Positions 31,798 to 55,732 of a DNA stretch of 64,000 nucleotides are shown piece after piece. A model generated the notes under the pieces. It was not told the origin of the DNA, made no database searches, and saw only the letters and a program-made list of their open reading frames with translations. The stretch covers positions 288,001 to 352,000 of the forward strand of contig JASGHJ010000002.1 in assembly GCA_047602405.1 (NCBI GenBank). Direction: 5' to 3'. Positions within the stretch are counted from its first letter, which is position 1; the number at the start of each line of letters is the position of its first letter. The translations under genes and the position numbers were made by a program. Origin of the DNA: Anaeromyxobacteraceae bacterium (GTDB lineage Bacteria > Myxococcota > Myxococcia > Myxococcales > Anaeromyxobacteraceae).

Positions 31798-31827
31798 TTG
31801 ACCCTGCCGGGTGGGCGGCCCTATACT
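31798..31827 (+). promoter_or_regulatory. sigma70-type promoter of gltI
   Basis: TTGACC-N18-TATACT. Confidence 0.6.
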
Positions 31828-31878
31828 TTCGCGTCCCCTGCCTGGCCGGCCCAACCTTCACGCCGAGCGAAACCACCT

Positions 31879-34800
31879 GTGAGCGCACCGGCTTCGGAAG
31901 ACCAGATCCGCCTGCACCTCGAGACCCTCGAGGCCGCCCCCGGTGACGTGGGCTCCTTCCGGGCCCTCGAGAGCCTCTACGAGAACGCCGCGCGCTGGGA
32001 CGACCTCATCGCGCTCTACGAGGGGCGCGCGCAGGCCGTGCCCGAGCCCGGCGCGCCGCTGCTCGCCCGCGCGGCCAACCTCGCGAGGAACCAGCTGCGC
32101 AACACCGCCCGGGCCGAGGGCCTGTGGCGGCGCGTGCTCCAGGCGGAGCCCGCCCACGGCGACGCCCTGCGCGCGGTGGCGGAGATCCTGGAGGAGCGCG
32201 AGGACTGGACCGCGCTCGCCGCGGTGCTCGAGCGGGAGGCCGCCGGGGCGCACGACCCGGCCGAGGCCGCCCGCCGGACGCTCCGGGCGGGCAAGGTCCA
32301 CGAGGAGCGGCTCGGGCGGCGCGACCGCGCGGCGCTCCTGTACGCCCGCGCCTGCCGGCTCGATCCGACCCTCGGGGAGGCCCGCACGCGCGCGCTCGCG
32401 TGCTTCGTGGCGCTGCGCCGGTTCGGGCAGGCGAAGAAGATGCTCGACGCCGTGCGCGACCTCGGCGGGGACCGCCCGGGGCTCGCGGCGGAGTACGCCC
32501 GCCTCGGCGCGGCGCTCGTCGACGAGCCGCTCGAGCACGGCCTCGCGATGGACGCGCTCATCGAGGCGCTCGCCCTCGACCGGAGCGCGCCCGGCGCGGC
32601 CGAGGCCCGCGAGCGGCTGAAGGGCATCCCCCGCGCGTGGCGCGACGAGGCGAGGGCCCTCGACGCGCGCGCCGCCGCCTCCACCGACCGCAGGGAGGCC
32701 GCCGGGCTGCAGCTCAAGCTCGCGCAGCTGCACGTGGCCTACGACCCCGAGGGCGCGCCCCGCGCGCTCGAGCGGATCGAGCGCGCGTGGGCGCTCGCGC
32801 CCGGCGACGGGTTCGCGCTCGAGCTCCTCGGTCGCGCCTTCGCGGAGCGGGGCGACCACCGCGGGCACGCCGACGCGCTCGCGAAGCTCGCGGCGGGCAC
32901 CCGCGACCGCGCGGCGCAGGTGGCGCTGCACCTCGAGATGGCGCGCGTCGACCTCGTGCGCTTCGGCGACGCCGACGCCGCGCTCGCCGCGCTCGAGCGC
33001 GCGCTCGAGCTCGACCCCGCCTGCGAGAGCGCCGCGCTGCAGGCCTTCGAGCACCACGCCGACGCCGGGCGCTTCGACCGGGCGCTCGGGGTGCTCGAGC
33101 GGCACCTCTCGGCCGCGCCGGAGAAGCCGGCCCACGCGCCGCTCCGGGTGCGCTCCGCCCAGCTCGCGAAGGACCGCCTCTCCGACCCCGCCCGCGCCCG
33201 CCGCCACCTCGAGGCGGCGCTGCGCGTCGACCCCGGCCACTTCCCCGCGGCGACCGCGCTCGCCTCGCTGCTCGCCGACGCCGGCGAGTGGCAGCGGCTC
33301 GCCCAGCTCCTCGAGGGCGCGCTCGCCTCCGACGTGGAACCGGCCGAGAAGGTCCGCCTGCTCGAGCGCCTCGCCGAGGTGCAGCAGGAGCGGCTCGGGA
33401 AGCCGAAGGAGGCGCTGCGCACGCTCGCCCGGGCGCTCGCCCTCGATCCGGCCCGCGCCCAGACGCGCAAGGCCATGGAGGGCGCGGCCGCGCGCGCGGA
33501 CGCGTTCGGCGACCTCGCCCGGGCCTACCGCTCCGCCGCGGACGACGCCGCGGACCTGAAGGCGAAGAAGACCCTGCTCCGCCGGGTGGCGGAGATCGTG
33601 GACCGCGACCTCGGCAAGCCGGAGGAGGCCGTGCGCGCGTGGCGCGCGCTCCTCGAGGTCGACGCCGACGACAGGGGCGCGCAGGCCGCGCTCGACGCCT
33701 GCCTCGCGAAGGCGGGCCAGCAGGAGGAGCTCGCGAAGAGCCTCGACGAGCGCAGGCGGGCCGCCGCGGGGGACGAGCGTCGTTCGCTTTCGGTGAAGCT
33801 CGCGAAGCTCTGGCAGGACGCCGCCCGCTACGGCGACGCGGCGGGGGTGTGGCGCGAGGTCGTCGAGGCGGCGCCCACCGACGACGAGGCGCTGTGGGGG
33901 CTCCACGCCGCGCTCGAGGCCCAGAGCGGCCCCCGGGCCGCCGAGGAGCGCACCGGCGTGCTCGCCGCCCTGGCCGCCCGCGCGAAGGGCCCCTCCGAGC
34001 GCGCCGCGCTCGAGCTCGCCCGCGCCGAGCTGCTCGCCGACCCGCTCGCCCGCCCCGAGGACGCCGCGACGCTCGCCATCGCCGTGCTCGCCGCGGGCGG
34101 CATCGGGCCGGGCCTCGTCGCCGACGCGACGTCGCTCCTCGAGCGGCTCCCGGCGCGCGGCGCCGACGGGCTGCGCGTCGCCCAGGCGCTGGTGCCGGTC
34201 TACGCCTCCTCGAACGAGCCCGCGAAGCACGCCGCCGCCCTCGAGCTCGTGGGCCGGAAGCTCCCCCAGGGCGCCGACCCGCGCGAGCGGGCCCGCGCCT
34301 TCCTCGACGCCTCGCAGATCCGCGCCGACCGGCTCGGCGATCTGCGCGGCGCGCTCTCCGACGCCGCCGCCGCGCTGCGCGCCGCGCCCGACCACGCCGA
34401 GGCCCGCCGCCGCTGCGAGGACCTCGCGCGCCAGGTCGGCGCCCAGCGCGAGCTCTACGGCCTGCTCCAGGAGGCCGCCCGCCGGCTGCAGGGCCGGCCC
34501 GAGGAGGAGGCCGCGCTGCGCGTCCGCGCCGCCGCGGTGGCCGAGGAGGACCTCGGCGCCTACGACGACGCCGCCACCCAGCTCCACCGCGCCCTCGAGC
34601 TCCGCCCCGCCGACCCGGCCGTGCTCGCCGCGCTCACCCGCGTCGCGCTCGCCTCCGAGCGCTGGCAGGACGCCGACGCGCTCCTCGCCCGCCGCGCCCA
34701 GGCCGCCGCCGGGCCGGAGAAGGCCGCGCTGCTCGCGCAGCGCGCCGAGGTGCTCGAGGACCACCTGAAGGACCCCGCCGCCGCCGCGGCCGCGCTGCGC

Positions 34801-37800
34801 GAGGCCGTGGAGTTCACCCCGCAGGACGGCAAGGCCCGGCTCCTGGGCCGGCTGGCCGCGGCGCTCGGCGCCGCCGGCGACGCCGCCGGCCGGGCGAAGG
34901 CCCTCGCCGCGCTCGCCGCGAGCGTGCCGGACAAGGCCGAGGCCTCGAAGGCCGCGCTCGAGAGCGCGCGCATCCAGGCGTCGCTCGGCGACCCCGTCAC
35001 CGCCGCCGAGGCGCTCGCCGCCGCCTACGCCGCGAACCCCGAGGACGCCCCGACGCTCGCCGCGCTCGAGGCGGTGCTCGAGGGCGCGAACCCGGAGGCG
35101 ACCCTCGCCGCCGCGGGCGCGCTCGCGTCCCACCCGGATCCCCGCCGCCGCGCGAAGGCCCTCGAGGCCCGCGCCCGCGCGCTGCGCGATCCCGCCGAGC
35201 GGGCCGAGGCGCGCCTCGCCGCCGCCAGGATCCACGAGGCCGAGCTCGACCAGGTCTCGCTCGCCTTCCTGGACGTCGCCGACGCCGTGAAGGACGCGCC
35301 GGCCGACGCCGCCCTGCGCGCGGAGCTGCGCCGCCTCGCCGCCGAGAGCCAGGAGCTCGAGGCCTGCGCGAAGGTGTACGACGAGCTCGCCGAGCGGGCC
35401 CCCGCCGAGCAGCGGCTCACGATCCTCCGCGAGCGCGCCGAGTGGTCGGACCGCCGCCGCGATCCCGCCTCCGCCGCCGAGGGCTGGCAGCGCGTGCTCG
35501 CCGCGAACCCGGGCGACCGGGAGGCCCTCACCGCGCTCCGTCGCCTGCACCGCGCCCGCGAGCGCTGGGGCGAGCTCGCCGACGTGTGCGCCGAGATCGG
35601 GCGCGCCGCCCAGGAGCCCGCCACCCGCCAGGACGCGCTGCGCGAGGAGGCCGCAGTGGCCGAGACGCGGCTGCGCGACCTCGGGCGCGCCGCCGCCGCC
35701 TGGACGGCGGTCGCCGGCATGGCCCCCGCCGACGCCGAGGCCCAGGCCTCCCTCGAGCGGCTGCACGAGCAGCTCGACCGGCCCCGCGATCTCGCCATCG
35801 CCCTCGAGCGCCGCCTCGCGCGCGCGTTCGACCTCGACACGGCGGCCCGCCTCGCGGAGCTGAGGCGCACGCGCCTCGGCGACCCCGCCGGCGCGCTCGC
35901 GCTGCACGCCGAGCTCGTCCGGCGCGATCCCTCGCGCATGCCGTCGGTGGACGCGCTCGTCGCGCTCGCGGCGACCCCGGGCCCGGTCGGCCGGGAGGCG
36001 CTCGCCGCCGCCGAGCCGGCGCTCGCCGCGGCCGGCGAGCACGCGCGGAGGGTGGCGGCCCGCGAGGCGCGCCTCGGCGCGGTGACCGAGCCGGAGGAGC
36101 GCGCGCAGCTCTTCCTCGACGTGCGCACGATCCTGGCGCACGACCTCGCCGATCCCGCCGGGGCGTTCGCGGCGGCCCGCCGCGCGTTCGGCGAGGCCGG
36201 CCCGGCGCGCGCCGGGGCCGGCGCCGACCTCGAGCGGCTGGCCCGCGCGACCGGCAAGCTCGACGAGCTCGCCGCGGCGTGGGAGGAGGCGGCCCGCGGG
36301 GCCGCCGGCGCCGAGGCGCTCGACCTCGCGCGCCGCGGGGCGCGCCTGCGCACCGAGCGCGGCGCGGGCGCGGCCGCGGTCGATGCGTGGAAGCGCGTGC
36401 TCGACGCCGCGCCCGGCGACGGCGAGGCGATGGCGGAGCTCGAGAAGCTCTACCAGGCGTCGCGCTCGGCCGGGGAGATCCTGGTCCTCGCGCGGCACCG
36501 CGTCGGCCAGGCCGAGGGCCCGGCCCGGGCCGGTCACTGGCTGCACGCCGGCAAGCTCTGCGAGGACCTCGGCGACGCCGCCGCCGCGCTCGAGGCCTTC
36601 CGCGCCGCGCGCGCGGAGGACCCGGCGTCCACGCCGGCGCTCGAGGGGCTCGACCGGCTCCTCGCGCGCCAGCCGGCCTCGGAGGAGCACCTCGAGGTGC
36701 TCGCCGCCCTGGCCGGCCTCGCCGGCCCCGACGAGCGGCTCGCCGTGCTGCTGCGCCGCGCGGCGCTGCTCGAGGCCGATCCGTCGCCCCGCCGGGCGGT
36801 GGAGGGCTACGCCGAGCTCCTCGCCGAGTGGCCGCGCGAGCCCCGCGCGGTCGCCGGCCTCGAGCGCCTGCTCGCCCGGCCCGACGCGCGGGAGCCCGCC
36901 GCCCGCGCGCTCGAGGACGTGTTCCGCGCCGCCGGCGACGCCCGGCGCCTGGTGGGCCTGCTCGAGCTGAGGCTCGAGCACGCCGACCCCGCGGAGCGCG
37001 CACCGTTGCTGGCCGAGGTGGCCGCGCTGCACGAGCGGCTCGGCGATCGCAAGAAGGCCTTCCTCGCCCGCGCGCGGGAGCTCGACCTCGCCGCCGCGCG
37101 CGGCGAGGACGCCCCGGCCGTCCGCGCGGAGCTCGAGCGGCTCGCCGCGACGACCGGCGCGTTCGGCGAGCTCGCCGCGGCCCTCGAGGCCGCGGCCGGC
37201 GCGCCCGGGCTCCCGCCCGCGGCGGCGCTCGAGATGAAGCGGCGCCTCGCGGCGGTGGCGGCCGACCGGCTCGGCCGGCTCGACGCCGCGGCGCGCTGGT
37301 ACGAGGACGTGGCGCGCGAGGCGCCGACCCCGGAGACGCTCGGCGCGCTCTCGCGCGTCTACCGGAAGCTGGGCGCGCACCGCGACCTCGCCCGCACGCT
37401 CGGCCGCCTGGCCGACGTCGCGCCGGGCGCGTCGGCGCAGAAGGAACTCCTGCTCGAGGTGGCGAAGATCATGGCCGACCAGCTCTCGGATCGGGACGGC
37501 GCCGTCGACGCGTACAAGAAGATCCTCGCGGTCGATCCGGAGGACCCGAACGCGCTGCGCCTCCTCGGCAAGCTCCTCAACACCGCCGAGCGCTGGGACG
37601 AGCTCGCCGACGTGCTCGCCCGCGAGGTCTCCCTCGCCGACAGGAACCCGAACCTCGCCGCCGACGCGGCGGAGCTCCGCTACCGGCTGGGCCGGATCCG
37701 CCAGCAGCGCCTCTCCGACCCGGACGGCGCGCTCCTCGCCTACCGCGAGGTGCTCGCGAAGGTCCCGCGCCACCCCGGCGCGCTGACCGCGCTCGAGGAG

Positions 37801-40800
37801 CTCGCCCGCGGCTCGGGCGCCTCCGCGATCGAGGCGGCGGGCGTCCTCGAGCCGGTGTACGCGGCCGAGGGTGAGCACCAGAAGCTCGTCGAGACCCTCG
37901 AGGCCCGCGCCGCGAACGAGACCGACCCGGTGGCCCGCGCCGCGCTGCTCCGGCGGGTCGCGGACGTCTACGGCGGCTCGATGCGCAACGCCGAGCTCGC
38001 CTTCGTCGCGGCGAGCCGCGCGCTCGCCGCGCACCCCGACGCGCTCGAGTCGCTCGAGGCGGCCGAGCGGTGGTCCGCCCAGGCCGGCTCCGCCGAGGAG
38101 CTCGCGGCGCTGCTCGCCGAGAACGCCGACCGCGCCCGCGAGCCGCGCACCCGCGGCGAGCTGCTCCGCCGCATCGCCCGCCTCGCCCGCCCCGAGCCCG
38201 CGAAGGCGGCCGAGGCGTGGCAGCGGGTGCTCGACCTCCTCCCGGAGGACGCCGAGGCGTGCCACGGCCTCGTCGAGGCGCTCCGCGGCGGCCAGGAGCC
38301 CGAGGCCTTCGCCCAGGCGCTGCGCCGCGCGCTCGCCATCGAGCCCGACGACGCGCGGCGGGCCACGCTCCTCGCCGACCTCGCCGCCGTGCAGGACGAG
38401 CGCCTCGACGACGCCGGCGGCGCGATCCTCACCACCCGCCGCCTGCTGGAGCTGCGGCCCGAGGACCGCGACGCGCTCGCGCGCCTCGACCGGCTCTGCG
38501 TCCGCACCGAGCGGTGGGTCGACCTCGGCGAGGTGCTCGCCCGCGAGGTGCCGGCGGCGGCCGCCGCCGGGGACGAGGCCGCGGTGCTCGCCCTCGAGTA
38601 CCGGCTCGCCGAGCTCAAGGAGGCGCGGCTCCTCGACAAGGAGGGCGCGCTCGCCCTCTACGAGGAGGTGCTGAAGGCGCGCCCCGACCACCCCGAGGCG
38701 ATCGCCCGGCTCGAGGCCTGGCTGCAGCGCGACCCGGGCCACCCCCGGGTCGGCTTCGTCCTCGAGATGGCCTACGCGCAGGGCGGCGACGCCGCCCGGC
38801 AGGCGGCGGTGCTCGAGATGCGCGCCGGCGAGCGGCCGGACGCGGTGGAGCGCAAGGCGCTCTACCTGCAGCTCGCCGACGTGCGCGAGCAGAAGCTCGC
38901 CGACCCGGAGATGGCGTTCCTCGCGCTCTGCAAGGCGTTCCGCGAGGACCCGGCCGACGTGAAGGTGCGCGCCCGGCTCGAGAAGTCCGCGGAGGCCTCG
39001 GGGCACGAGGAGGAGCTCTGCGCGATCTACCAGGACGAGGTGGACCGCCTCCCGCCGGTCGACGCGGCGGCGGTCTCGCTCGTCATCGGAAGGCTGCTCG
39101 ACGAGCGGCTCTCCAATCCCTCCGGCGCGGCGCCCTACCTGCGCAGGGCCCAGGCGCTCGACCCCGAGGCCGCGCAGTTCGCGCTCCCGGCGCTCGAGCG
39201 CATCTACACGAAGCTCGAGTCCTGGCCGGAGCTCGCCGACGTGCTCTCGTCGCGCGCCGCGGCGGCCGCCGCCCCCGCCGACAAGGTCGCGATCCTCTTC
39301 CGCCTCGGCCAGCTCTGCGAGGAGATGCTCGAGCAGAAGGACCGCGCCGCCGAGGCGTACGAGCACGCGCTCGTCGCCGACCCGCGGCACCTCCCGTCCC
39401 TGCGCGCCCTCGAGGCGCTCTACGAGGGGGCCGGCCGCAAGGAGGACCTCTACCGCAACCTCGACGCGCAGCGCGCCGCCCCCGGCGACGCGGCGGCGAA
39501 GGAGCGGGTGATCGTGAAGCTGGCCGGGCTCGCCGCCGAGCTCGGGCGCATCGACGACGCGGTCGCGCTCTGGCGCGAGCTCCTCACCCAGAAGCCGCGC
39601 CACGACCAGGCCCTCGCCGCCCTCGAGGAGCTCTTCGAGCAGGGCGAGCGGTGGAGCGACCTCGCGGCGCACCTCAGGATCCGGCTCTCCGCCACGGTGG
39701 ACCGGCGCGAGATCGCCCGGCTCAACGACAAGCTCGGCCTCGTGCTCGGCACGAAGCTCGGCGACATGGGCCAGGCGGTCGCGAGCTACAAGGCCGTCCT
39801 CGACTCCGACCCGCGCAACAAGCGGGCGCTCGAGTCGCTGCGCGACATCTACGCCGCCCAGGGCGAGCAGGAGGCGCTCGCGGGCGTCTACCGGCGCCTC
39901 GTCCCGCTGCAGGAGGACGCCGCGGGCGTGAAGCGGGTCCGGCTCGAGCTCGCCGAGGTGCTGCTCCGCGCCGGCAACAAGCGCGAGGCCACCGAGCAGG
40001 CGAAGCTCGCGTTCGACATCGAGCCGCACCTCGCCGAGGAGCTCGTCCGCATCGAGGAGGTCTTCCGGCAGACCGGCGCGGGCGCCGAGGGCGTGCGCGC
40101 CGCCGAGGCGCGGGCGGCCCTGCTCGCCGAGCAGGGCGGGCCGGCCGAGGCCATCCCGGCCTGGCTCGCGGTGGCCGAGCTGTGGAAGGGCCAGCGGCGG
40201 CCGGACGCCGCGGCCGCCGCGCTCGACAAGGTGCTCGAGCTCGACCCGGGCAACCGCAGCGCCTTCGACGCGGTGCGGGCGATCCACCAGGAGGCGGGCA
40301 ACTGGCGCCTCTACGCGCGGGTCTCCGAGACCTTCGCGCCGCAGGTGGCCGACCCGGCCGAGCGGCTCGGCCTCATGAAGGAGGCCGCGGGCATCCAGGA
40401 GCGGCGCCTCGGCCAGAAGGAGGGCGCGTTCCTCGCGTGGTCGCGCGTGGTCGCGGCCGCGCCCGCCGACGAGGAGGCGCTCGCCGCCTGCGAGCGGCTC
40501 GCCGCCGAGACCGAGGCGAACGAGGAGCTCTCCGAGATCTACGAGCAGGTCGCCGACGAGTCGAAGGGCATCGTGCGGGCGCAGATCCTGCTCCGGCTCG
40601 GCAGGCTCCGCGACGAGAAGCTCGACGACGCCGACGGCGCGGAGAGCGCCTTCCGGCGCGCGCTCGAGGCCGACCCGGGCAGCCCGGAGGCGCTGGCGTC
40701 GCTCACGCACCTCTTCAAGCGCCGCGGCCGCGTCCGCGAGCTCGTCATCACCCTCGAGCAGAAGCTCGAGGCGGCCGCCGACATGGCCGAGAAGAAGGCG

Positions 40801-43800
40801 ACGCTCGTGGAGGTCGCCCGGCTCTACGACGGGGAGCTCAAGGACGTCGACGAGGCCATCACCGCGCTCCGCCGCGTGCTCGAGCTCGACGGCTCCGACC
40901 CGGCCGCGCTCGACGCGCTCACCGGCATCTACCGGCGCGAGGCGCGCTGGCAGGACCTCGCCGGCGTGCTCTCCCGCGCCCGCGACCTCGCGGCGACCGA
41001 CGAGCACCGCATCGCCTACCAGCTCGCGATCGCGTCCCTCTACGAGAACGAGATCTCCGACGACGAGGCCGCGGTCGAGGCCTACCGGACCGTGCTCGGC
41101 ATGGACGACGGGAGCCAGGAGGCCCTCTCCGGCCTCGAGCGGCTCTACACGAAGCTCGACCGCTTCGCCGAGCTGAACCGGGTCTACGAGCGGCAGGTCG
41201 CGCTCACGAGCGACCCGGTCGAGCAGGCGCACGTCCTCGCGAAAGAGCGCCGGCATCCAGGAGGAGAAGCTCCACGACGCGAAGGCGGCCACCGAGAAGA
41301 ACGAGCAGATCCTGTCGCTCGACGGCGGCAACCTCCCGGCGGTGAAGGCGCTCGAGCGGCTCTACCGCGACGCGAAGTCGTGGGACCGGCTCATCACGGT
41401 GCTCCAGCACCACCTCACGCTCGTCACCGACCGGCGCGACCAGGTGGCGCTCGAGGTCCAGATCGGCGAGGTCTGGTACAAGGAGATGGCCCGCGTCGAT
41501 CGCGCCGAGGCCATCTTCAACCACGCCCTCCAGCTCGATCCCGAGTCGCGCCAGGCGGTCTCGGCGCTCGGCCGGCTCTACGAGCGCTCCGGCAACTGGA
41601 ACCTCGCGCTCGACATGCTGAAGCGCGAGGCCCGCATCGCGGGCGGCGCGAAGGACGCGGTCGACCTCCACGTCCGGATGGGCGGCATCCTCGAGGACAT
41701 GCTCCTCGACGTGAACGGCGCGAAGGAGGCCTACCAGAAGGCGCTCGCGCTCGACCCGGGCTGCCTGCCCGCGGTCCGCGCGCTGAAGGGCATCGCCGAG
41801 CGGGGCCGCGATCGCGGCTCGTACCTCGAGATGCTCCTCGACGAGGCCCGGTACGCGACCGATCCCGCCGAGAAGACCCGCCTCTACACCGAGGTCGGCC
41901 GCCTCCACCAGGAGGAGAAGGACGATCGCGACGGCGCGGCGAAGTACTACGAGGAGGCGCTGAAGCGCGCCCCGGGCCACCTCGAGGCGGCCCGCCCGCT
42001 CGCCGACATCTACATCCAGGACCAGCGCTGGGTGGACGCCGAGCGCGTCCTCGACGCGTGCGTCGAGGCGATCCAGGGCTACGGCGACGCGAAGGAGCTG
42101 TGCCGGCAGTGCTACCGGCAGGGTTACGTCGCCGAGAAGCTCGGCAAGCGGGAGAAGGCGCTCGCGTGCCACCGGCGCGCGTACGACCTCGACTCGACCT
42201 ACCTGCCCGCGCTCGAGGGCCTCGGCCACCTCCTCGTGCAGGAGGGGCAGTGGGACGAGGCGCTCCGGATCTTCACGACCATCATCATCCACCACCGGGA
42301 CGGCCTCACCGACCTCGAGGTGGTCGAGACGCACTGGCAGATCGGCGAGATCTCCGACAAGCTCGGCCAGCAGGACCGCGCGGTCGGCGCCTTCCGGAAG
42401 GCCCTCGAGATCGACGCGAACCACGAGCCGTCCCGCAAGAGCCTCGTGAGGGTCCTCGAGACCCTCGGCGACTGGGAGGGCGTGGTCGAGCAGCGCCAGC
42501 GGCTCCTGCCGCTCCAGGAGGGCCCGGCGAAGTTCGAGAACTTCGTCGCCCTCGGCGAGGCCTGCCGCGACCGGCTCCACGACCCGTACCAGGCCATCGA
42601 CGCCTACCTCGGCGCCTCGCGCGTGGATCCGACCTCGCTCCCGGTCACCCAGGCGCTGCTCGGCCTCTACAAGGAGACGCGCCAGGGCCAGAAGGCGGCC
42701 GACGTGCTCGCGCAGCTCCTCGAGCGGCCCGAGGTCCAGGCCGACCGGCCGAGCGCGGCGCAGATGCACCTCTCGCGCGCCGAGATCCTGCGCACCGAGG
42801 TGAAGGACGAGCCGGCCGCGCTCGTCGAGCTCGAGAGGGCGCTCGACGCGAACCCGCGCCTCGTGCAGGCGTTCGCGCAGGTCGAGGAGATCCTCGGCGG
42901 CCAGAGCCGCTGGGAGGAGCTCGAGCAGGCCTACGTGCGGATGATCGCGCGGCTCCCGAAGACGCCCGACGCCGCGCGCGCCCGCGCCGGCCTGTGGCGC
43001 GCCCTCGGCGACCTCTACCGCAACGTGCTCCGCAACGAGGAGGGCGCCCGCACCGCGTACCAGGTCGTGGCGCGCTCCGAGCCGGAGGACGCCGCGGCGC
43101 TCGAGATCTACGCCGAGCTCGCGACCGCGAAGCCGGGCGAGGAGGGCGAGGCGATCGGCGCCTACCGCCAGCTCCTCAAGCTCGGCGCGATGCCGAACAA
43201 GGCCGCCTCCGCGCTCGTGAAGCTCCACGCCCAGCGCAAGGAGTACGACCTCGCGTACTCCGCCGCGCAGGTGCTCGTGCACCTCGTCGGCGGCGCGACG
43301 CAGGAGGAGGTCCAGGTCGTCTCCCGCCTGCGCAAGTTCGCGCGCGACCAGGCGAGCCGCTCGATGGACGACGCGATGTGGGACCTCGTGAAGCACGAGC
43401 GCGTGAAGGGGCCGCTCGCGGACATCCTCACGCTGCTCGCGGTCCACGCCCGCGGCATGTTCGTGCAGAAGGAGAAGGACCTCGGCATCAACCCGAAGCG
43501 GGACGAGATCGACGTCCAGGGGTCGATGCTGTTCTTCGCGAACATGTTCAAGTACGTGGAGCGCACGCTCGGCACGAAGGGCCTGAGGCTCTTCCGCCGC
43601 GAGGAGCTCCCGAGCCGGCTGCAGCTCCTCCCGACCGAGCCCATCGGCGTGGGGGTGGTGGAGGACGCCTTCGCGGAGCGGCCGAAGAAGGAGCTCTGGT
43701 TCGCGCTCGCGAAGGCGATGACCTTCGCGCGCCCGGAGATGCTGCTCGCCCGGCTCATGCCCCACGAGCAGCTCGACCTCGTGTTCCAGGCGGCGTGCTC

Positions 43801-44173
43801 GGTGGGGACCTCGCGGTTCGTCGTCACCGCCGACCCGCACCTCGTCGAGAAGCTGAAGCGGGAGCTCGACCGGACGCTGCCGGAGAAGGTCCGCAAGAAC
43901 GCCCTGAAGGTGCTCGCCCGGAACTACTGCGACGTCCAGCACCCGGGCGACGTGCGGGCCTACCTCGACGGCGCCGAGCTGACCTCCAACCGGGTGGCGA
44001 CGCTGCTCGCCGGGGACCTCGAGCTCGCGAAGCGGGGCGCCCTCTCCGAGAAGCCCCAGGTCTCGAAGCTGCGGGAGGACACGCGGGTCAAGGATCTCCA
44101 GTCGTTCTGCCTCACCGACACCTACGGGACCCTCCGAGATCGTCTCGGGCTCTCGTGCGTCGTAACCACCTGA
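31879..44173 (+). CDS. gltI: Giant TPR gliding protein AgmK/GltI (~4100 aa; one +1 frameshift at ~41243)
   Basis: Continuous TPR-like helical repeats; frames 31798.. and 41342.. join at GAAAGAGC; no signal peptide; lies between gltH and gltJ. Confidence 0.82.
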
Positions 44174-44190
44174 GGCGGCGAGACGCCTCA
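44171..44190 (+). terminator. Hairpin at the gltI stop codon
   Basis: TGAGGCG-gcgaga-CGCCTCA; no U-tract. Confidence 0.35.
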
Positions 44191-44210
44191 GCGGCAGGCG
44201 CGGGCGCGCG

Positions 44211-44240
44211 TTGACGGTCGGCCCGGCCCAAGACTAGGAT
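44211..44240 (+). promoter_or_regulatory. sigma70-type promoter of gltJ
   Basis: TTGACG-N18-TAGGAT. Confidence 0.55.
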
Positions 44241-46115: not shown

Positions 46116-47232
46116 TTGGCCATCAGCCCGAGTCTGCCGCCCAGGGTGGCGTGGCGCACGCTCGCCGACATGGGGCCGGCGGAGCTCGAGATGCTGCGCC
46201 TGATCCTGCGCGGCGGCTCGGTGATCGACTGGCGCCGGCTCGACTTCAAGACGCCGCAGGAGGTGGACGCGTTCCTCGCGCTCAACCTCTTCGACCTCGA
46301 GGACCTGCGCGACGAGCGCCGGGTGCGGGCGATCCTGCTGCAGGCGGTGGAGTACCTGCGGGCGGCGTTCGGGTACCGGGTGGCGGAGCCGGTGGCGCGG
46401 CCGGAGGACCTGCGCGAGCTGTTCCTGCTCGCCTCGGGCGCGCTCGAGCCGAAGCGGTACCGCCGCATCGCGTGCGTCGTCTTGAAGGTGATGCACGTCA
46501 TCCACCACCTGGAGGCGCGCGAGCTGCTCTTCCGCACGCCCATCCGGGAGGCGGACCTCGCGGACCGGGTGCACCGGCGGGTGATGGGCGAGGCGGAGCG
46601 GATGCGGACGGCCGGGCTGCCGATCGTGGAGTTCGCCGGCAACCGCAAGCCCCGGCCCTCGCTCGTGACGAAGCTGCTCGCGAAGCGGGAGACCGTGGCG
46701 GCGCAGGTGTTCGACCGCGTGCGCTACCGGGTGGTGACGGAGCGGCCCGACCAGAATCGTCTCGGTGGTGTGGCACCTCACCCAGACGCTGTTCCCGTTC
46801 AACTTCGCGCTGCCCGGGCAGACGCAGAACAACCTCGTGCGCTTCTCGGAGCTGCTCGAGGCGCACCCGAAGGGCGCCGAGGTCGCCGAGCAGCTGCAGC
46901 TCCCGATCGAGCTCGAGGCGCGCGACCCCGCCGCGCCACGGAACGAGTTCTCGGGGCGCGGGTACCGGGTGCTGAACTTCGTCGTCGACCTGCCGGTGCG
47001 GATCGACGACCTCATCCCCCCGCTCGACCCCATGGCGGACGAGCTCGGGCGGGTGGTCTTCTCGCTCGTCGAGTTCCAAATCATGGACGCCGCGACGGCG
47101 AAGCAGAACGAGGAGGGGGACTCCTCGCACGAGCGGTACAAGCGCCGCCAGCTGCAGCGCGTGCTCCGCCGGCTGTCGCGCGGGCTCGTCGTGCCGAAGA
47201 AGGGCGCGAGGACGACCGGCGACGGGGAGTAG
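46116..47232 (+). CDS. TIGR04552-like protein with RelA/SpoT-synthetase-like motifs (one +1 frameshift at ~46755)
   Basis: LILRGGSVIDW N-terminus; RKPRPSLVTKL, FDRVRYRV, GYRVLNF, VEFQIMD and EGDSSHERYK; SD GGGAG before TTG. Confidence 0.72.
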
Positions 47233-47309
47233 GGAAACAGGAGCGGGAGCAGATGCGTGAGCAGGAGGAGCGGTAGGCGGAGCTGGAGCTGAAGCGGATG
47301 CGGAGGCGG
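47233..47309. repeat. Degenerate hexamer tract (GGAGCG/GGAGCT/GGATGC-like)
   Basis: Purine-rich 6-nt periodic sequence between convergent stop codons. Confidence 0.5.
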
Positions 47310-49039
47310 TCACGCGGCGGCCTCCTGCGCGACGGGGGCGGTCGAGGGCGGGGCCGCGGGTTCGTCCCGGTCCTCCGGATCCAGCACGGCGAGCTCGAGG
47401 CCGTCGCGTTCGAAGAACTCCCAGACGAGGTCGCCGGGAGCCCGTCCGCTCACGCGGATGAAGCCCTGGTGGATTGCGATGAGGTGGTGGGCGGCGCAGA
47501 GGGCGACGAGGTTCCAGTGCTCCGAGCAGCCGCCGTGCGAGCGGAAGCGGATGTGGTGGAGGTGCTCGGCCGGGTGGGAGCAGCCGGGGACTCGGCAGCG
47601 GCAGCCGTCGCGCTTCATGACCGCGTCGGTCTTCTTCCAGAGGGCGGAGGCGAGGTCGATCCACGTCTTCGTGAAGTGGGCGCTCATCATGAAGAGTGCC
47701 TGGCCAGGGGTGAGGCCGGGCCCGGTGCGCAGGCGGGCGGCGGTGACGGCGTCGCGGAAGAGGGCGTCGACGTCCTCGGGGACGGAGAGCCTCACCTCTC
47801 CCGAGGACCACATCTGACGATCTCGCTCCTCGCGGGCTTTCCGCTTCGTGTCGAGCGCGGGCTTGGCGGCGGCGCTCTCGATGCGCGCCTTCACGTCGGT
47901 CGGCGTCGCGACCTCCGCCACGGCGCGGGCCTGCTCGTAGGAGAGCGTGCCGTCGCGGAGCGCGGCGCGAAGGTCGGGCAGTGCCTTCAGGTTCCGCTCG
48001 AGCGTCATCCGCTGCCGCGCCGTGGACGGTGCGATGCCGAGGGGCCTCGACGCAGAAGGCCTCGAAGCCGCCGACGGCGTGCCCCTGGACGACGAAGCCC
48101 TTCCATGCCCGGAAGAACTTCACGAGCACGAGCGCCCTGCCGAGCCGCTCGTCGTCGGAGAGCCGAACCCTCACGAGGCGCTCGAGCTCGCGGAGGAGCG
48201 CCCGGGGGCGGCGGGGCCGAGGCCAGGGAGGTGCGGCTGGAGGGGCAGGGCGCGCCACACCTGACGAACCCGCGCCGGCAGACGCGCCGACCTCGCGCGC
48301 CACGCCTGATGATCCCGCGCAGGCCTCGCCGCGCGCCACACCTGACGATCCGCCCTCCAGGTGCTCCGGCAGCGGAAACCCGCCGAGGAACTCCATCGAG
48401 AGCGCCTGGAGGATCCTCCAGTTCGGCGCATCGAGGTCGCCGAGCACGATGGAGGCGACGCCGAACGCGTCCTCCACGCCCTCGCGGTGGACCGGGTCGT
48501 CGTCGAGCTTCGCGGCGAGCTGCCGCCAGCCGAGTTCGTACGGGTCCCTTCCGGGCCTCGTGAGCTTCTCGAGCGCCCGCACCGTCCTGAGCCTCGCGAG
48601 CTCCAGCCAGCGCTGCTCCTCCGCTCCGAACGCGACCTCGACGATCGCGTCCACCTTCCGGAGCGAGAACTCCCCCGCGATCACGGCCGCCCTGAGGAGC
48701 GGGCGCACCGCAAGCTTCTCGGCCATCGCCGCGAGCCAACGTGCATGCTGCGGATCGATCCCCAGCCGATCGAGCGCGAGAATCGCCGATGCCGTTGTAG
48801 CCGAGCTTGAGGTCGTGCTGACGGAGCGCCGCGAGCCCCTCGCCCACCGCGAGGTCCTTCGCGCCTCCGCCCTTCGCGAGCTTCACCGTGAGAGAGCCGA
48901 GTCGATGCGCATCCGCCCCGGAGAGCGGGTGCAGCGCGGGCGCACCCTTCGCTGCCTCCATGCGCGCCTCGAGCCGCGTGAGGAGGGCGTCATCTCCTTC
49001 TGCCGCAACGCTTTCCGCGATCTGGAATCGGCGGGCCAT
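47310..49039 (-). CDS. DUF222-like HNH endonuclease (two +1 frameshifts at ~48042 and ~48781; ~575 aa)
   Basis: C-terminal RDGCRCRVPGC..HLHHIRFRSHGG..NLVALCAAHH; two internally similar helical modules. Confidence 0.82.
48250..48351 (-). repeat. Three 21-bp direct repeats inside the HNH gene (encode GSSGVAR)
   Basis: GCGCGCCAC[A/G]CCTGA[C/T]GA[A/T]CC at 48250, 48295 and 48331, with spacers of 24 and 15 bp. Confidence 0.85.
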
Positions 49040-49048
49040 CTGAACGGA

Positions 49049-49070
49049 AGTCTAGTGCCAGGGTCTGACA
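49049..49070 (-). promoter_or_regulatory. RecA-NDp/PafBC-like promoter of the HNH gene
   Basis: TGTCAG-N10-TAGACT, 9 nt upstream of the ATG at 49039. Confidence 0.6.
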
Positions 49071-49781: not shown

Positions 49782-51032
49782 TCAGACCACCCCCGCACGC
49801 CGCAGCGCGTCCTGCTCCGCCTCGGAGAGCCCGAGCTCCCGGAGGACCTCCGCCGTGTGCTGCCCCAGGGTCGGGGGCGCCCGCGGCGGCACCACCGGCG
49901 TGCCGGACAGCCGGATCGGCGAGGCCACGAGCGCCGCCCGGCCGGCGACCGGGTGCTCCACCTCGACCCGCATGCCGCGGTGCCGGACCTGGGGATCCGC
50001 GAACACCTGCCCGAGGTCGTTGATGGGCCCGCAGGGCACGCCGGCGGCCTCGAGGGGCTCGATCCAGGCGGCGCGGGGCCGCGCCGCGAGGGCCGGGGCG
50101 AGGAGCGCCACGAGCGCGTCCCGGTGCCGGACCCGGGCGGCGTTGGTCCGGAAGCGAGGGTCGTGCGCGAGCCCGGGCAGCCCGAGGACCTCGCACAGCC
50201 TCCCGAACTGCCCATCGTTGCCGACCGCGATGACGAGGTGCCCGTCGGCGGCGAGGAAGCTCTGGTACGGCACGATGCTCGGGTGCGCGTTGCCGAGCCG
50301 GCCGGGCGGCCTCCCGGTCGTGAGGTACGCCTGGGACTGGTTCGCGAGCATCGCGACCTGCACGTCGAGGAGCGAGAGGTCCACGTGCTGGCCCTGCCCG
50401 GTGCGATCGCGGTAAGCGAGCGCGGCGAGCACCGCGGTCGCGGCGTACATGCCGGTCATGACGTCCGTCACCGCGACGCCGACCTTCACCGGCCCGCCGC
50501 CGGGCTCGCCGTCCGGCGCGCCGGTGACGCTCATGAGCCCGCCCATGGCCTGGAGCAGGAGGTCGTAGCCGGCGCGGTGCCGGTACGGCCCGGTCTGGCC
50601 GAAGCCGGTGATGGAGCAGTAGACGAGGCCCGGGTGCTCCCGCGCCAGGGAAGGGTAGTCGAGGCCGTACCGCTCGAGGCCGCCCACCCGGTGGTTCTCG
50701 AGCAGCACGTCGGCGCGGGCCGCGAGGCGGCGCACGAGGGCCTGGCCCTCGGGGCGGGCGAGGTCGACGGTGATGGAGCGCTTCCCGCGGTTCGCGGAGA
50801 GGAAGTACGAGGACTCGGCGGTCTCGCGCCCGTCCGCGTCCGCGAGCCAGGGAGGGCCCCAGCCGCGCGTGTCGTCGCCCGCGCCGGGGCGCTCCACCTT
50901 CACGACGTCGGCGCCGAGGTCGGCGAGCACCTGGGAGGCCCACGGGCCCGCGAGCACGCGGGAGAGGTCGAGCACGCGCAGGTGGCCGAGCGGGCCCGGC
51001 CGGGAGGGTCGTTCCGCTGTGCGAAATGACAT
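49782..51032 (-). CDS. CaiB/BaiF class III CoA-transferase
   Basis: RVLDLSRVLAGPW..LADLGADVVKVE..NRGKRS..GFGQTGPY..GYDLLLQ. Confidence 0.93.
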   Translation of the reverse strand: MSFRTAERPSRPGPLGHLRVLDLSRVLAGPWASQVLADLGADVVKVERPGAGDDTRGWGPPWLADADGRETAESSYFLSANRGKRSITVDLARPEGQALVRRLAARADVLLENHRVGGLERYGLDYPSLAREHPGLVYCSITGFGQTGPYRHRAGYDLLLQAMGGLMSVTGAPDGEPGGGPVKVGVAVTDVMTGMYAATAVLAALAYRDRTGQGQHVDLSLLDVQVAMLANQSQAYLTTGRPPGRLGNAHPSIVPYQSFLAADGHLVIAVGNDGQFGRLCEVLGLPGLAHDPRFRTNAARVRHRDALVALLAPALAARPRAAWIEPLEAAGVPCGPINDLGQVFADPQVRHRGMRVEVEHPVAGRAALVASPIRLSGTPVVPPRAPPTLGQHTAEVLRELGLSEAEQDALRRAGVV

Positions 51033-51068
51033 TCCGAAATTCTAATCATCGTGGTTGACAGCGGAACG
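51010..51068. promoter_or_regulatory. Divergent promoter with probable IclR operators
   Basis: 11-bp inverted repeat CGTTCCGCTGT (51010-51020) / ACAGCGGAACG (51058-51068), the latter overlapping TTGACA; AT-rich island. Confidence 0.5.
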
Positions 51069-51900: not shown

Positions 51901-53094
51901 ATGGCGACGTCGACCGAGCTCACCGACTACATGGGCTTCCAGGCGCTCCTCACCGAGGAGGAGCGGCTGGTCCGCAGGGAGGCGCGGGCCTTCGTGAACG
52001 CGGAGGTGCTCCCCGTCATCGAGGAGCACGCGCAGGCGGGCACGTTCCCGCGGCAGCTCGTGGCCGGCATGGCCGCGCGCGGCTTCCTCGGGCCGACGCT
52101 CCCGCAGGAGTACGGCTGCGCCGGGCTCGCGAACGTGGCCTACGGGCTCCTCATGTACGAGCTCGAGCGGGGCGACTCCGCCATCCGCAGCTTCGCCTCG
52201 GTGCAGGGCTCGCTCGTGATGTTCCCCATCCACGCGTACGGCTCCGAGGCGCAGAAGCGGCGCTGGCTGCCGAGGCTCGCGGCGGGCGAGGCGATCGGCT
52301 GCTTCGGCCTCACCGAGCCGGACTTCGGCTCGAACCCCGCGGGCATGAAGACGCGCGCGGTGCGCCAGGCGGGCGGCCCATCTGGAAGGGCACGGTGGCG
52401 GCTCGACGGCACGAAGATGTGGATCACGAACGGCACGATCGCCGACGTGGCGGTGGTCTGGGCGCGGACCGACGACGGCGTGCGCGGGTTCCTGGTCGAG
52501 AAGGGGACCCCGGGCTTCTCGGCGCCGGAGATGAAGGGGAAGTGGTCGCTCCGGGCCTCGGTGACCTCCGAGCTCGTGCTCGACGGCGTCGTGGTGGACG
52601 AGGAGCAGGGCCTGCTCCCGGGCGTGAAGGGCCTCAAGGGGCCGCTCTCGTGCCTCAACCAGGCCCGCTACGGGATCGCCTGGGGCGTGCTCGGCGCGGC
52701 CGACGCCTGCTACCAGTGCGCGCTCGACTACGCGCGGGAGCGCGTCCAGTTCGACAAGCCCATCGCGTCCTTCCAGCTCCAGCAGGAGAAGCTCGCGTGG
52801 ATGGTCACCGAGCTCACGAAGGGCCAGCTCCTCGCGCTCCAGCTCGGCCGGCTCAAGGACCAGCACCAGGTGACCCCGGCGCAGGTCTCGATGGCGAAGC
52901 TGAACAACGTGCACGCCGCGCGCGAAATCGCGAGCCGGGCGCGCACGGTGCTCGGCGCGAACGGGATCGTCGGCGAGTACCCGATCATGCGCCACATGGC
53001 GAACCTCGAGTCGGTCTACACGTACGAGGGCACCCACGACATGCACCTGCTCATCGTGGGCGAGGAGATCACCGGGATCCCGGCGTTCCGGTAG
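51901..53094 (+). CDS. gcdH: Acyl-CoA dehydrogenase, glutaryl-CoA dehydrogenase family
   Basis: ELERGDSAIRSFASVQGSLVM..GCFGLTEPDFGSNP..RHMANLESVYTYEGTHDMH. Confidence 0.82.
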   Translation: MATSTELTDYMGFQALLTEEERLVRREARAFVNAEVLPVIEEHAQAGTFPRQLVAGMAARGFLGPTLPQEYGCAGLANVAYGLLMYELERGDSAIRSFASVQGSLVMFPIHAYGSEAQKRRWLPRLAAGEAIGCFGLTEPDFGSNPAGMKTRAVRQAGGPSGRARWRLDGTKMWITNGTIADVAVVWARTDDGVRGFLVEKGTPGFSAPEMKGKWSLRASVTSELVLDGVVVDEEQGLLPGVKGLKGPLSCLNQARYGIAWGVLGAADACYQCALDYARERVQFDKPIASFQLQQEKLAWMVTELTKGQLLALQLGRLKDQHQVTPAQVSMAKLNNVHAAREIASRARTVLGANGIVGEYPIMRHMANLESVYTYEGTHDMHLLIVGEEITGIPAFR

Positions 53095-53100
53095 CGGGGG

Positions 53101-54001
53101 TCACCCCGCCGCCGCCGCGAAGCTCACGAGGTCCTGGCCGTCGGTCCACTGCGCGTAGCCGAGCACCTTCGCGCCCAGGCCGGAGGCCCGCATCGCCGCG
53201 TAGATCGGCGCGACGCCGCACAGGCGCCGCCGCTCGTCCTGGCGCACCGCCTCCCGGAAGAACGCCTCGGGGTCGCCCCCCTCGAGGGCGGCGAGCGTGC
53301 GGCGGTCGAGCGCGGCGAGCTCCGTGCGCTCCACCGGGTCGAGCGGGCGGGCGTCGCCGTACATGGGCCCCGCGTGCGCGAGGTCGGCGCCGGCGACGTA
53401 GCAGACGTTCCGGCCGCGCAGCTCCCGGCCGAGGGCGTCCAGGAAGGCGAGGGTCGCGCGGGCGGGGTCCCTCAGCTGCGAGAATCGACGAGCAGAGCAC
53501 CGGGAGGACCCTGGCCGGGCGCCGGTTCGCGCGCAGCAGCGCGAGCAGCGGGAGCTCGATGGCGTGCTCCCCGGCGTGCACGTCCTCGTCGCCGAGCACC
53601 TCGTCCTCGCCGAGGCGCCTCACGAGCTCGTCCACGAGCGCGCGGTCGGTGGGGATGCAGCCGAGCGGGGTCGTGTAGTCGAGGCGGGTGAGCGTGAAGA
53701 GGTGGGGCGGGGTGACGTGGGCGGTGCCGAAGACGACGTAGAGCTCCGCGTCGGCGCCGGCGAGCGCGCGCGCGGCGGGCGCGTAGACCCGGGCGCCGCG
53801 GGTGAAGTCGACGTGCGGCACGACCACGAGCCGGGGCGGCTCGTCCGGCCACCGCGGGGCGGGCAGTTCGAGCCAGCGGTCGAGCGCCCGGGCGAGCGCG
53901 GCGGGGTCCTCCGGGTACACGCCGCCCGCGCACGAGGGTGGGCGGTGGGGCTGGGCGCGGTAGGCGGCGAGCGCGCGGCTCCGGGGTCCGGGCACGGGCA
54001 T
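53101..54001 (-). CDS. MEMO1/AmmeMemoRadiSam protein B-like (one +1 frameshift at ~53483)
   Basis: AGGVYP, VPHVD, GTAH, EHAIELPL; after correction GADLAHAGPMYGD and LCGVAP. Confidence 0.82.
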
Positions 54002-54078
54002 GTCCGGGGATGTCGTAACGCGAGCCGGCCCGGACGCGCCGTCGCGCAAGCGTGGGAAGGCCGGAAGGGGCGGTTCGC

Positions 54079-55732
54079 TTACCGCTTGTTCTTCTTCCGG
54101 TTCTTCTTCTTGTTCTGGCGCTCCTGCTTGCGCTTCTTGCGGCGCGCCTCCTGATCGGCGCGGGACTCGAGCGCGATCGGCTCGGGCGAGTAGCCCATCA
54201 TCCGCGCGCGGGCCATGGCGCCCGCGGCCATGGGCGGGGTGTAGCCCTTCGGCAGCCCCATCGCCTTCGCGGCCTCGGGCGGGATCATCCCGCCGCGCAT
54301 CGCCTGCTGGACCGCGTCGGCGTCGGCGCCGAGCACGTCCTCCATGCCCTTGCCCTGCAGCTGGCGCAGCTGCATGAGCTGCTTCACGCCGGGCAGGCGC
54401 GCGAGGAGGCCGGGCGCGGAGCCGACCTGCTTCATGACCCCGCGCATCTGGTTGTAGTGCTTGAGGAGCTCCTTGACCTCCTTCTCGCTGCGGCCGGAGC
54501 CCTTCGCGATGCGCTTCTGGCGGCGCTCGTCGACGAGGTCGGGGCGCGCGCGCTCCGTCTTCGTCATCGAGTCGACCATCGCGACGATGCGGTCGAGCGC
54601 CTTGTCGTCGAACTGGAAGCCCTCGGGAAGCTCCCCGAACAGCGGGAACTTCTCCATGATGTCGCCGAGCGAGCCCATCTTCCGCACGAGGCGGAATCTG
54701 GTTCACGAAGTCGTCGAGCGTGAAGTCGCCGGAGAGGATCTTCGCGGCGTCGCGCTCCGCGGTCTCCTCGTCGACGTGCTGCTCGAAGTCCTTCACGAGC
54801 CCGACGACGTCGCCGAAGCCCAGGATGCGGGAGGCGAGGCCCTCGGGCCGGAACTCCTCGAGGCGGTCGAGCGACTCGCCCATGCCGAGGAACTTGATGG
54901 GCTTGCCGGTGACCTCCTTGATCGAGAGCGCCGCGCCGCCGCGGGCGTCGCCGTCGAGCTTCGTGAGCACGAAGCCGTCGAGCACGAGGCGCCGGTCGAA
55001 CTCGGCCGCGGTCTTCACGGCGTCCTGGCCGATCATGGCGTCGGCGACGAGGAGGATGTTCTCCGGCGCGACCTCGCCCTTGATCTGCTCGAGCTCCTGC
55101 ATGAGCTCGTCGTCGATCGCGAGGCGGCCGGCGGTGTCGTAGATGACGACCGCGGCCTTCTCGCGGGCGGCGGCGTCGAGCGCGTGGCGGCACATGGCCG
55201 GCGGCGCGACGCCCGGCTCGTGGAACACGGTGACGCCGAGCTTCTCGCCGAGGACCTTGAGCTGGTCGACGGCGGCGGGGCGGTAGACGTCGGCGGCGAC
55301 GAGCAGCGGCCGCTTGCCCTCGTCGAGCAGCTTTTTCGCGATCTTGCCGGCGGTGGTCGTCTTGCCGGAGCCCTGGAGGCCGACCATCATGATGCCGGTC
55401 GGGCGGGCGCGGTCCTTGCCGAACCGCAGCGACGTGTCGACCGGGCCCATCAGGCCCTCGAGCTCGTCGTGGCAGATCTTGATGAAGTGGTCCTGCGGCC
55501 CGACCTTGAGCGTGCCCTTCGCGGTCTTGACCTTCGTCTCGACCACCTCGCCGATGGCCTTCTCGCGCACGCGCGCGACGAAGCGCTTCACGACGTCGAA
55601 CGAGACGTCGGCCTCGAGGAGGGAGACGCGGATGTCCCGGAGCGCGTCGTCGACCACCTCGGCGGTGATCTCGGTGCGCCCCGAGAGCTTGTTCCTGGCG
55701 GCCTTGAAGCCCTTGGCGACGGTCTCGAGCAC
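54079..55732 (-). CDS. ffh: Signal recognition particle protein Ffh (one +1 frameshift at ~54695)
   Basis: GLQGSGKTT, DVYRPAA, DTAGR, TKLDGDARGG; M domain (SMTKTER..RIAKGSG) in the 54079..54687 frame. Confidence 0.95.

Follow-up and report, generated by a model that had tools for sequence, protein, structure and literature searches.

The window, as we call the whole 64,000-nucleotide stretch of Anaeromyxobacteraceae DNA analysed here, holds an HNH nuclease gene behind what resembles an actinobacterial PafBC/RecA-NDp promoter. This raises the question of what reads such a promoter in a myxobacterium, and whether the gene belongs to a damage regulon governed by WYL-domain proteins or to a selfish element that carries its own promoter. 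The initial annotation offered these as alternatives; our data support both together. We consider it likely, at roughly three chances in four, that the gene is one copy of a dispersed promoter-plus-HNH repeat whose damage promoter is read by the organism's own PafB/PafC. The present genome (G000) comprises 6.16 Mb at 74% GC; C1 and C2 denote its contigs.

The promoter, reading frame and protein of the window gene

The sequence TGTCAG-ACCCTGGCAC-TAGACT lies at 49070..49049 on the minus strand and is the sole match in the 64 kb window (shuffled sequences gave a mean of 0.01 matches, with at least one match in 1 of 100 shuffles). TGTCAG (49065..49070, minus strand) is the predicted -26 element read by PafB and fits the consensus tGTCgg(N10)tA(N3)T given in the accessible text of PMC8635444. 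TAGACT (49049..49054, minus strand), 10 nt behind it, is the predicted sigma-70-type -10 hexamer. Nine bases, TCCGTTCAG, separate TAGACT from the ATG at 49039, and no Shine-Dalgarno-like run occurs within them, just as had been described. The gene start is inferred to be leaderless or near-leaderless. A LexA-box-like sequence, CTAGAC-TTCC-GTTCAG (49040..49055, minus strand), extends over the -10 hexamer and the leader, with three mismatches to the M. xanthus box (consensus from the accessible part of PMC9705874). A looser match, TGTCAA-N10-TAGAAT, is found at 51039-51060 (C2:339060, minus strand), 6 nt before the gene at 51032..49782, and is probably an ordinary promoter.

The HNH repeat gene (47310..49039, minus strand) would span about 575 codons if read through, but the open gene of that length reported earlier does not exist in the present assembly. 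The reading crosses three frames because of single extra bases at 48782, lengthening a T run, and at 48044, inside a C run; both are extra relative to two intact copies in the nearest relative (G010), which encode 574 and 581 amino acids. These two insertions are probably assembly errors, since lexA is split as well and several long genes in the window change frame, although this copy may be a pseudogene. The frame changes in long genes fall at 31798-44214, 46116-47232 and 53069-55732 of the window, with lexA likewise split at C2:1748978, and point to single-base assembly errors throughout. Low-complexity six-base repeats lie behind the stop codon (47230-47310); such repeats also follow a G010 copy whose site is unrelated.

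The identification as an HNH protein was correct: the C-terminus (47484..47597, minus strand) has a zinc-type signature (C-x4-C, HH, N, C-x2-HH) whose residues C486, C491, H499, H500, N514, C519 and H523, comprising the His-Asn-His set and the zinc ligands, are invariant across 28 homologues. PF01844 (HNH) was matched by 20 of these 28 at E<=0.05, and DNA-cutting activity is predicted from the conserved residues of HNH endonucleases. The predicted fold of an intact homologue (mean pLDDT 85) consists of two helical units and the HNH domain. The units, with approximate limits at 48375..48916 and 47665..48215 (minus strand), are tandem duplicates (hhalign probability 99.7), and the first is remotely DUF222-related with a ParB-HTH-like core.

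The label DUF222-like holds as remote homology but not as Pfam membership. The first unit aligns to a DUF222-bearing protein, P0032 (hhalign probability 96.6, E 5.8e-10, 99 columns), and one neighbouring Atlas cluster has 13% DUF222, yet none of the 28 family members matches PF02720 at E<=0.05 and the best score, on two paralogues, is 18 bits against the Pfam cut-off of 24.4 bits. We therefore describe the family, as judged by these profiles, as DUF222-related and not as a DUF222 member. Pfam searches with the three window fragments gave no clear family, and no solved structure was matched by Foldseek at E<=0.001; its rows were confined to weak ones for ParB/Noc HTH and HNH. The family profile collects 1,843 clusters at E<=1e-30, and close homologues of the window protein carry the name Anaeromyxobacter in protein databases.

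Distribution of the motif at repair genes and across genomes

The proposed scan for TGTCRG-N10-TANNNT revealed a spacer-specific signal in the present genome. With k set to 10, TGTCRG-Nk-TANNNT has 17 matches, compared with 0-2 for any other k in the range 5-15, and TGTCAG-Nk-TA occurs 24 times at k=10 versus 0-6 times at other spacers, so that the fixed 10-base spacer of the mycobacterial consensus is seen both in the window promoter and in the genome-wide counts. The loose form TGTCRG-N10-TA was rejected as a genome-wide count because codon periodicity inflates its numbers; in genome G176 it falls below its control (96 vs 124).

A union pattern gave 53 sites in the present genome. Ten were dropped (five extra TnpB-like copies, the second ssb copy, the window gene, and three without a convincing ORF), three more were unfetched (two of them already scanned), and the downstream ORFs of the other 40 were scanned. 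Of the 40, 11 serve repair or nucleotide supply: ssb, uvrB, radA, an imuA-like gene, recN, recQ, recJ, pcrA/uvrD, rmuC, a PD-(D/E)XK nuclease, and a B12 ribonucleotide reductase. Several of these repair ORFs scored under curated cut-offs because ORFs were cut at 400 amino acids. The control spacers 9, 12 and 13 yielded 62 sites, 57 with an ORF, and no core repair gene among the 57 (one Smr domain and one resolvase, by Pfam only). The motif is thus enriched at repair genes, a check that had been suggested at the outset, with Fisher p = 4e-5 for 11/43 versus 0/57 and p = 0.001 for a harsher count of 11/53 versus 1/62. One recA copy has the motif at two mismatches and the second recA is without it. 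The other genes behind the motif are TnpB-like genes (six copies), HNH genes, CarD, and unrelated or unnamed genes.

The ssb gene with its promoter occurs twice near a contig end, identical and inverted (C1:5868, minus strand; C1:20445, plus strand), representing either a duplication or an assembly artefact. The six copies of the TnpB-like gene, each of about 640 amino acids, are located at C1:600290, C1:645872, C1:1538103, C2:800010, C2:2144411 and C2:2703461. In these copies CTGAAC stands 3-4 nt before TGTCAG-N10-TANNNT and the gene starts 6 nt behind the motif, making them a second mobile family with LexA-like and PafBC-like signals. Other HNH families and two small transposase-like genes (one was scanned, with no family match) are also found behind the motif, at C2:1271674, C2:2602972, C2:1014191 and C2:1326068 (all minus strand).

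Over the order Myxococcales (151 genomes), TGTCAG-N10-TANNNT has 1359 matches versus 283 for the reversed pattern (1354 vs 280 without the unpublished G146), and 133 of the 151 genomes exceed their own control; no statistical test across genomes is given because kin are not independent. HTH_PafC scores over its cut-off in 145 of the 151 genomes, and in the six with a weak or no match the motif count is 32 versus 27 for the control. In several genomes with a strong PafC the strict motif does not exceed its control; examples are G031 (0 vs 8), G055, G059, G065, G112 and G141. In the phylum but outside the order (86 genomes), the motif count is 782 versus 706, and in the 30 of these with a strong PafC it is 376 versus 323. 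The motif signal is clear for the order and not clearly present outside it. The idea of a damage regulon in Myxococcota therefore stands for the order and not for the whole phylum, to which it should not be extended for now because the excess outside the order is slight even where PafC is present.

The PafB/PafC pair and the Myxococcus damage response

Reading of the motif by PafBC requires a PafB/PafC pair, and the tandem pafB/pafC-like WYL genes whose search had been proposed were found. The present genome has six WYL genes, including two tandem pairs. The first is an adjacent HTH-WYL-WCX pair: its second gene scores 97.6 bits on HTH_PafC (cut-off 32), and its PafB partner was judged by a WYL match and by likeness to solved PafB. 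The nearest solved structures to the proteins of this pair are those of PafBC (6SJ9, 7P5X and 9FND). The accessible text of PMC8635444 names the contact residues, and alignments to the M. smegmatis proteins show that K5, R8, E42, A43, R46, R50, K52 and Y76 of PafB and D62 of PafC are kept, among them the base-readout residues R46 and R50 together with E42, A43 and D62. S40 of PafB is replaced by T, and R56 and W70 are lost.

The likeness to the mycobacterial PafBC/RecA-NDp system, as described in the accessible texts of PMC8635444 and PMC6789036, covers the tGTCnG-N10-tAnnnT layout, the tandem HTH-WYL-WCX pair with HTH_PafC, the repair-gene targets, and residues E42, A43, R46, R50 and K52 of PafB and D62 of PafC. 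The differences are a Gram-negative host, a preference for TGTCAG over tGTCgg, the two lost residues, and the second pafBC-like pair. Promoter and regulator agree with a PafBC system in every sequence test run, and dependence of the promoter on PafBC is predicted. To our knowledge, sigma adaptation has been demonstrated only in Actinobacteria.

The motif could also be a real damage promoter read by another factor, such as an alternative sigma factor, another WYL protein or some other activator, with PafBC doing a different job. The six WYL genes with their two tandem pairs leave room for this, as do the PafC-positive genomes without an excess, inside and outside the order, the local preference for TGTCAG, and the loss of W70 and R56. 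We judge it distinctly unlikely, given that the core, the 10-base spacer, the -10 and the two base-reading arginines are the same as in the solved complex, that the excess fades in the few genomes of the order without PafC, and that in the second pair R46 is replaced by lysine, with a different, 9-base-spacer motif to match. That second pair lies at C1:232.5-234.5 kb. The motif TGTCCG-N9-TANNNT, which occurs 8 times versus 0-4 times at other spacers and clusters at C1:110364-166183 and C2:388242-392028, may belong to it.

Reading by PafB/PafC remains our preferred explanation, and published work on Myxococcus allows it to be compared with measured damage responses. M. xanthus pafB and pafC (MXAN_1359/1360), the same proteins by family as the first pair of the present genome, were named by Sheng 2021 (PMC9705874), whose accessible text counts 24 of 51 genes with a PafBC-binding sequence and has LexA binding the pafB/pafC box weakly and the recN box not at all. 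According to the available text of Jung 2025 (PMC12288472), the pair is up 3.4 log2 in a lexA mutant, alongside RecN, RecJ and UvrA, and was not studied further; the mechanism of ddiA induction was still to be determined and the regulators of the LexA-independent response were unidentified. These two sources, in the parts accessible, list recN, recA2, ssb, ligA, sbcD, recX and ddiA as damage-induced in M. xanthus. They also indicate that M. xanthus pafBC is LexA-repressed and rises on damage, whereas mycobacterial PafBC levels are constant. No LexA-like palindrome occurs within 450 nt upstream of pafB in the present genome, so the LexA-to-pafBC cascade is not evident here.

In Myxococcus-type genomes the motif is located upstream of recA2, recN and ddiA. 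G073, from another family of the order, has 22 strict sites, including those of recA, recN, ligA and an XRE gene; the LexA probes given in the accessible part of PMC9705874 lie within or next to its recA and recN sites, the recN probe differing at its last base. The published ddiA primer matches 9 of 32 genomes of the Myxococcus-type genus and all nine loci carry TGTCAG-N10-TAATCT. Five of the nine have both primers and a 119-amino-acid gene with its ATG 100 nt behind the hexamer; the accessible text of PMC12288472 places the ddiA start codon at +94 of a 120-codon gene. The published +1 is an A separated from TAATCT by 7 bases (the +451 end implies one base of slack), so the ddiA start site fits the mycobacterial geometry, in which transcription starts about 6-7 nt behind the -10, within one base. 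In G176, 20 of the 96 loose sites were picked by position and five are repair-related: sbcD, ssb, topoisomerase A subunit, a uracil glycosylase fusion and recX. The remaining 15 were irrelevant or without a family, and recA1, uvrA, ruvA and recJ were not met among the 20.

If sigma adaptation runs the Myxococcales damage response, this would answer, in a tractable model, the question stated as open in the accessible text of Jung 2025 (PMC12288472). It would also account for the rise of recN in the lexA mutant despite the absence of LexA binding at the recN box, because LexA represses pafBC and PafBC would in turn activate recN. The idea of such a regulon is partly in print for M. xanthus, whose pafBC is already named in PMC9705874; the accessible part of that paper mentions neither the ddiA link nor the HNH repeat family, and its text likewise contains no motif, spacer test or mutant (its Figure S3 may show the motif). 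Among the papers open to us (most subscription papers were beyond reach), none reports a test of this motif or of the pair in myxobacteria, or a description of the HNH repeat.

Copies and spread of the promoter-plus-HNH repeat

The window gene had been called solo, which is accurate at the locus but not for the genome, where 17 dispersed copies were found. All 24 sampled genomes of the genus hold HNH copies, with 1-17 in each. At E<=1e-30 members occur in two bacterial families (10 of 13 genomes in one, 8 of 14 in the other) and in 0 of 14 genomes of the Myxococcus-containing family; outside the order the range of the HNH family is given by Atlas taxa only.

Each of the 17 copies is preceded by YGTCAG, 10 bases, and a -10-like hexamer 6-10 nt before the start. 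The hexamer is strict in the window copy, TAnnnn in three copies and nAnnnT in 13. The relaxed pattern was written after these 17 copies had been viewed. In other genomes, where some of the loci had been seen before the pattern was applied, it occurs at spacer 10 in 15/16 and 20/23 HNH loci (35/39 together), with at most one occurrence at any other spacer from 6 to 14. It was found in none of eight distant single-unit relatives. Conservation of the motif upstream of homologous HNH genes, on which the original proposal hung, is therefore observed in relaxed form.

A motif of this kind could lack regulatory meaning, being either baggage inherited with the repeat family or a chance match; kinship among the members makes their counts non-independent, and the window copy is frameshifted. 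Against this, the hexamer and the spacer length are kept while the spacer bases and flanks vary, among proteins about 30-40% identical and in two families of genomes. Unrelated repair genes carry the same signal, and the spacer controls largely refute a meaningless match, which we consider highly improbable.

The sequence common to the copies starts at the motif or about 40 nt upstream and ends at the stop codon, and flanks are not shared. Since the promoter precedes the predicted +1, copying probably took place at the DNA level. No transposase, terminal repeat or target duplication was seen on reading the ends of the copies, and a clean empty site was not obtained. In all five other species of the genus that were compared, no copy of the HNH gene lies within 1.5 kb of the corresponding flank gene, in keeping with the proposed selfish element that brings its own promoter. 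In those five species a small gene follows next after the flank gene; it is not evident in the window. The nearest relative, G010, holds a copy at all three loci tested, including the two that were added in search of an empty site.

The window copy is 84% identical to the syntenic G010 copy, whereas the flanks are 85-93% identical, and this G010 copy is 90% like another copy in its own genome. Four copies of the present genome are 94-97% alike mutually and 82-83% like the syntenic G010 copy with which they were compared; the latter stands apart from other G010 copies (72-79%). Such identities are what gene conversion, or replacement at favoured sites, would produce, and by these comparisons copies appear to be homogenised within genomes. 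We rejected a recent burst of transposition as sufficient by itself, because the same sites are occupied in the nearest relative and shared occupied sites point to in-place replacement or repeated use of a site.

The same observations bear on whether the HNH genes are domesticated host nucleases, serving repair or defence, that expanded by ordinary duplication and were kept because they are helpful. The three loci shared with the nearest relative would fit this, as would the presence of at least one copy in 24 of 24 genomes of the genus, the invariant catalytic residues, and the lack of a visible mobility enzyme or terminal repeat. We nevertheless regard it as unlikely. Copy number ranges from 1 to 17, the locus is empty in the five other species, and the copies end exactly at the stop codon with no common flanks. 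Copies are 82-84% identical between the two species, compared with 89-93% for flanks, and yet 90-97% identical within a genome. TnpB-like and other mobile genes use the same promoter.

Taking the gene as a mobile repeat under a PafBC promoter, the signal that it has in common with repair genes suggests that the nuclease would be made when DNA is damaged, because its promoter is likely to be a PafBC-read damage promoter. By likeness to mycobacteria, single-stranded DNA would activate PafBC, PafB would read GTC at -26 while PafC holds sigma domain 4, and polymerase would start 6-9 nt behind the -10 to give a leaderless message. In this clade of copies LexA may also repress the gene through the box over the -10. 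The weakest parts of the scheme are that the helical repeats would bind DNA which the HNH domain would nick, and that recombination repair, switched on by the same signal, would copy the repeat over another copy or into a new site. Such repair-driven copying would explain both the homogenisation within genomes and the promoter travelling with the gene.

The CTAGAC-TTCC-GTTCAG box is confined to this clade of copies, and similar sites precede lexA, recA and imuA in the present genome. LexA half-sites lie near 11 of 43 motif sites compared with a background of 1.2%, mostly at mobile genes. Double control by LexA and PafBC is only a lead for this clade, because only 3 of 23 other homologues have a LexA half-site near the motif.

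The 13E12 repeats of M. tuberculosis, which we take to be DUF222-HNH proteins, invite comparison. The accessible text of PMC3381160 describes them as damage-induced insertion elements, several with RecA_NDp and six LexA-bound. Both families consist of dispersed multicopy HNH-type genes with RecA_NDp-type promoters, predicted ones in the present family, and LexA boxes or box-like sites in some members, and the N-terminal repeat of the present family aligns to a DUF222-bearing protein (probability 96.6). The present family differs in its duplicated helical unit (about 575 amino acids), in having no member that passes PF02720, and in having the LexA box in a minority of members.

Free-standing homing HNH endonucleases likewise combine an HNH zinc domain with DNA-binding-like helical modules and signs of gene conversion. 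The present repeat differs from them in being chromosomal, multicopy at unrelated sites and behind a predicted host damage promoter; no cognate empty allele was seen.

A wider reading, which we put forward tentatively and find rather doubtful, is that PafBC sigma adaptation is the missing master activator of ddiA, recN, recA2 and ssb and, in addition, that the HNH family is a damage-timed, homing-like chromosomal parasite, turned on by PafBC at just the time when RecA repair can act, that nicks and overwrites diverged sister copies, a 13E12-like strategy in a distant phylum. The 1,843 clusters of the family add an uncharacterised class of repeats that appears to time its activity to host damage, and offer a non-pathogenic model for the role of 13E12-type genes.

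A REP-like palindrome of about 50 nt has 72 matches in the present genome (for example C1:429852-429907 and C2:2830335-2830390). It immediately precedes eight members of a single HNH subfamily and is a possible target site.
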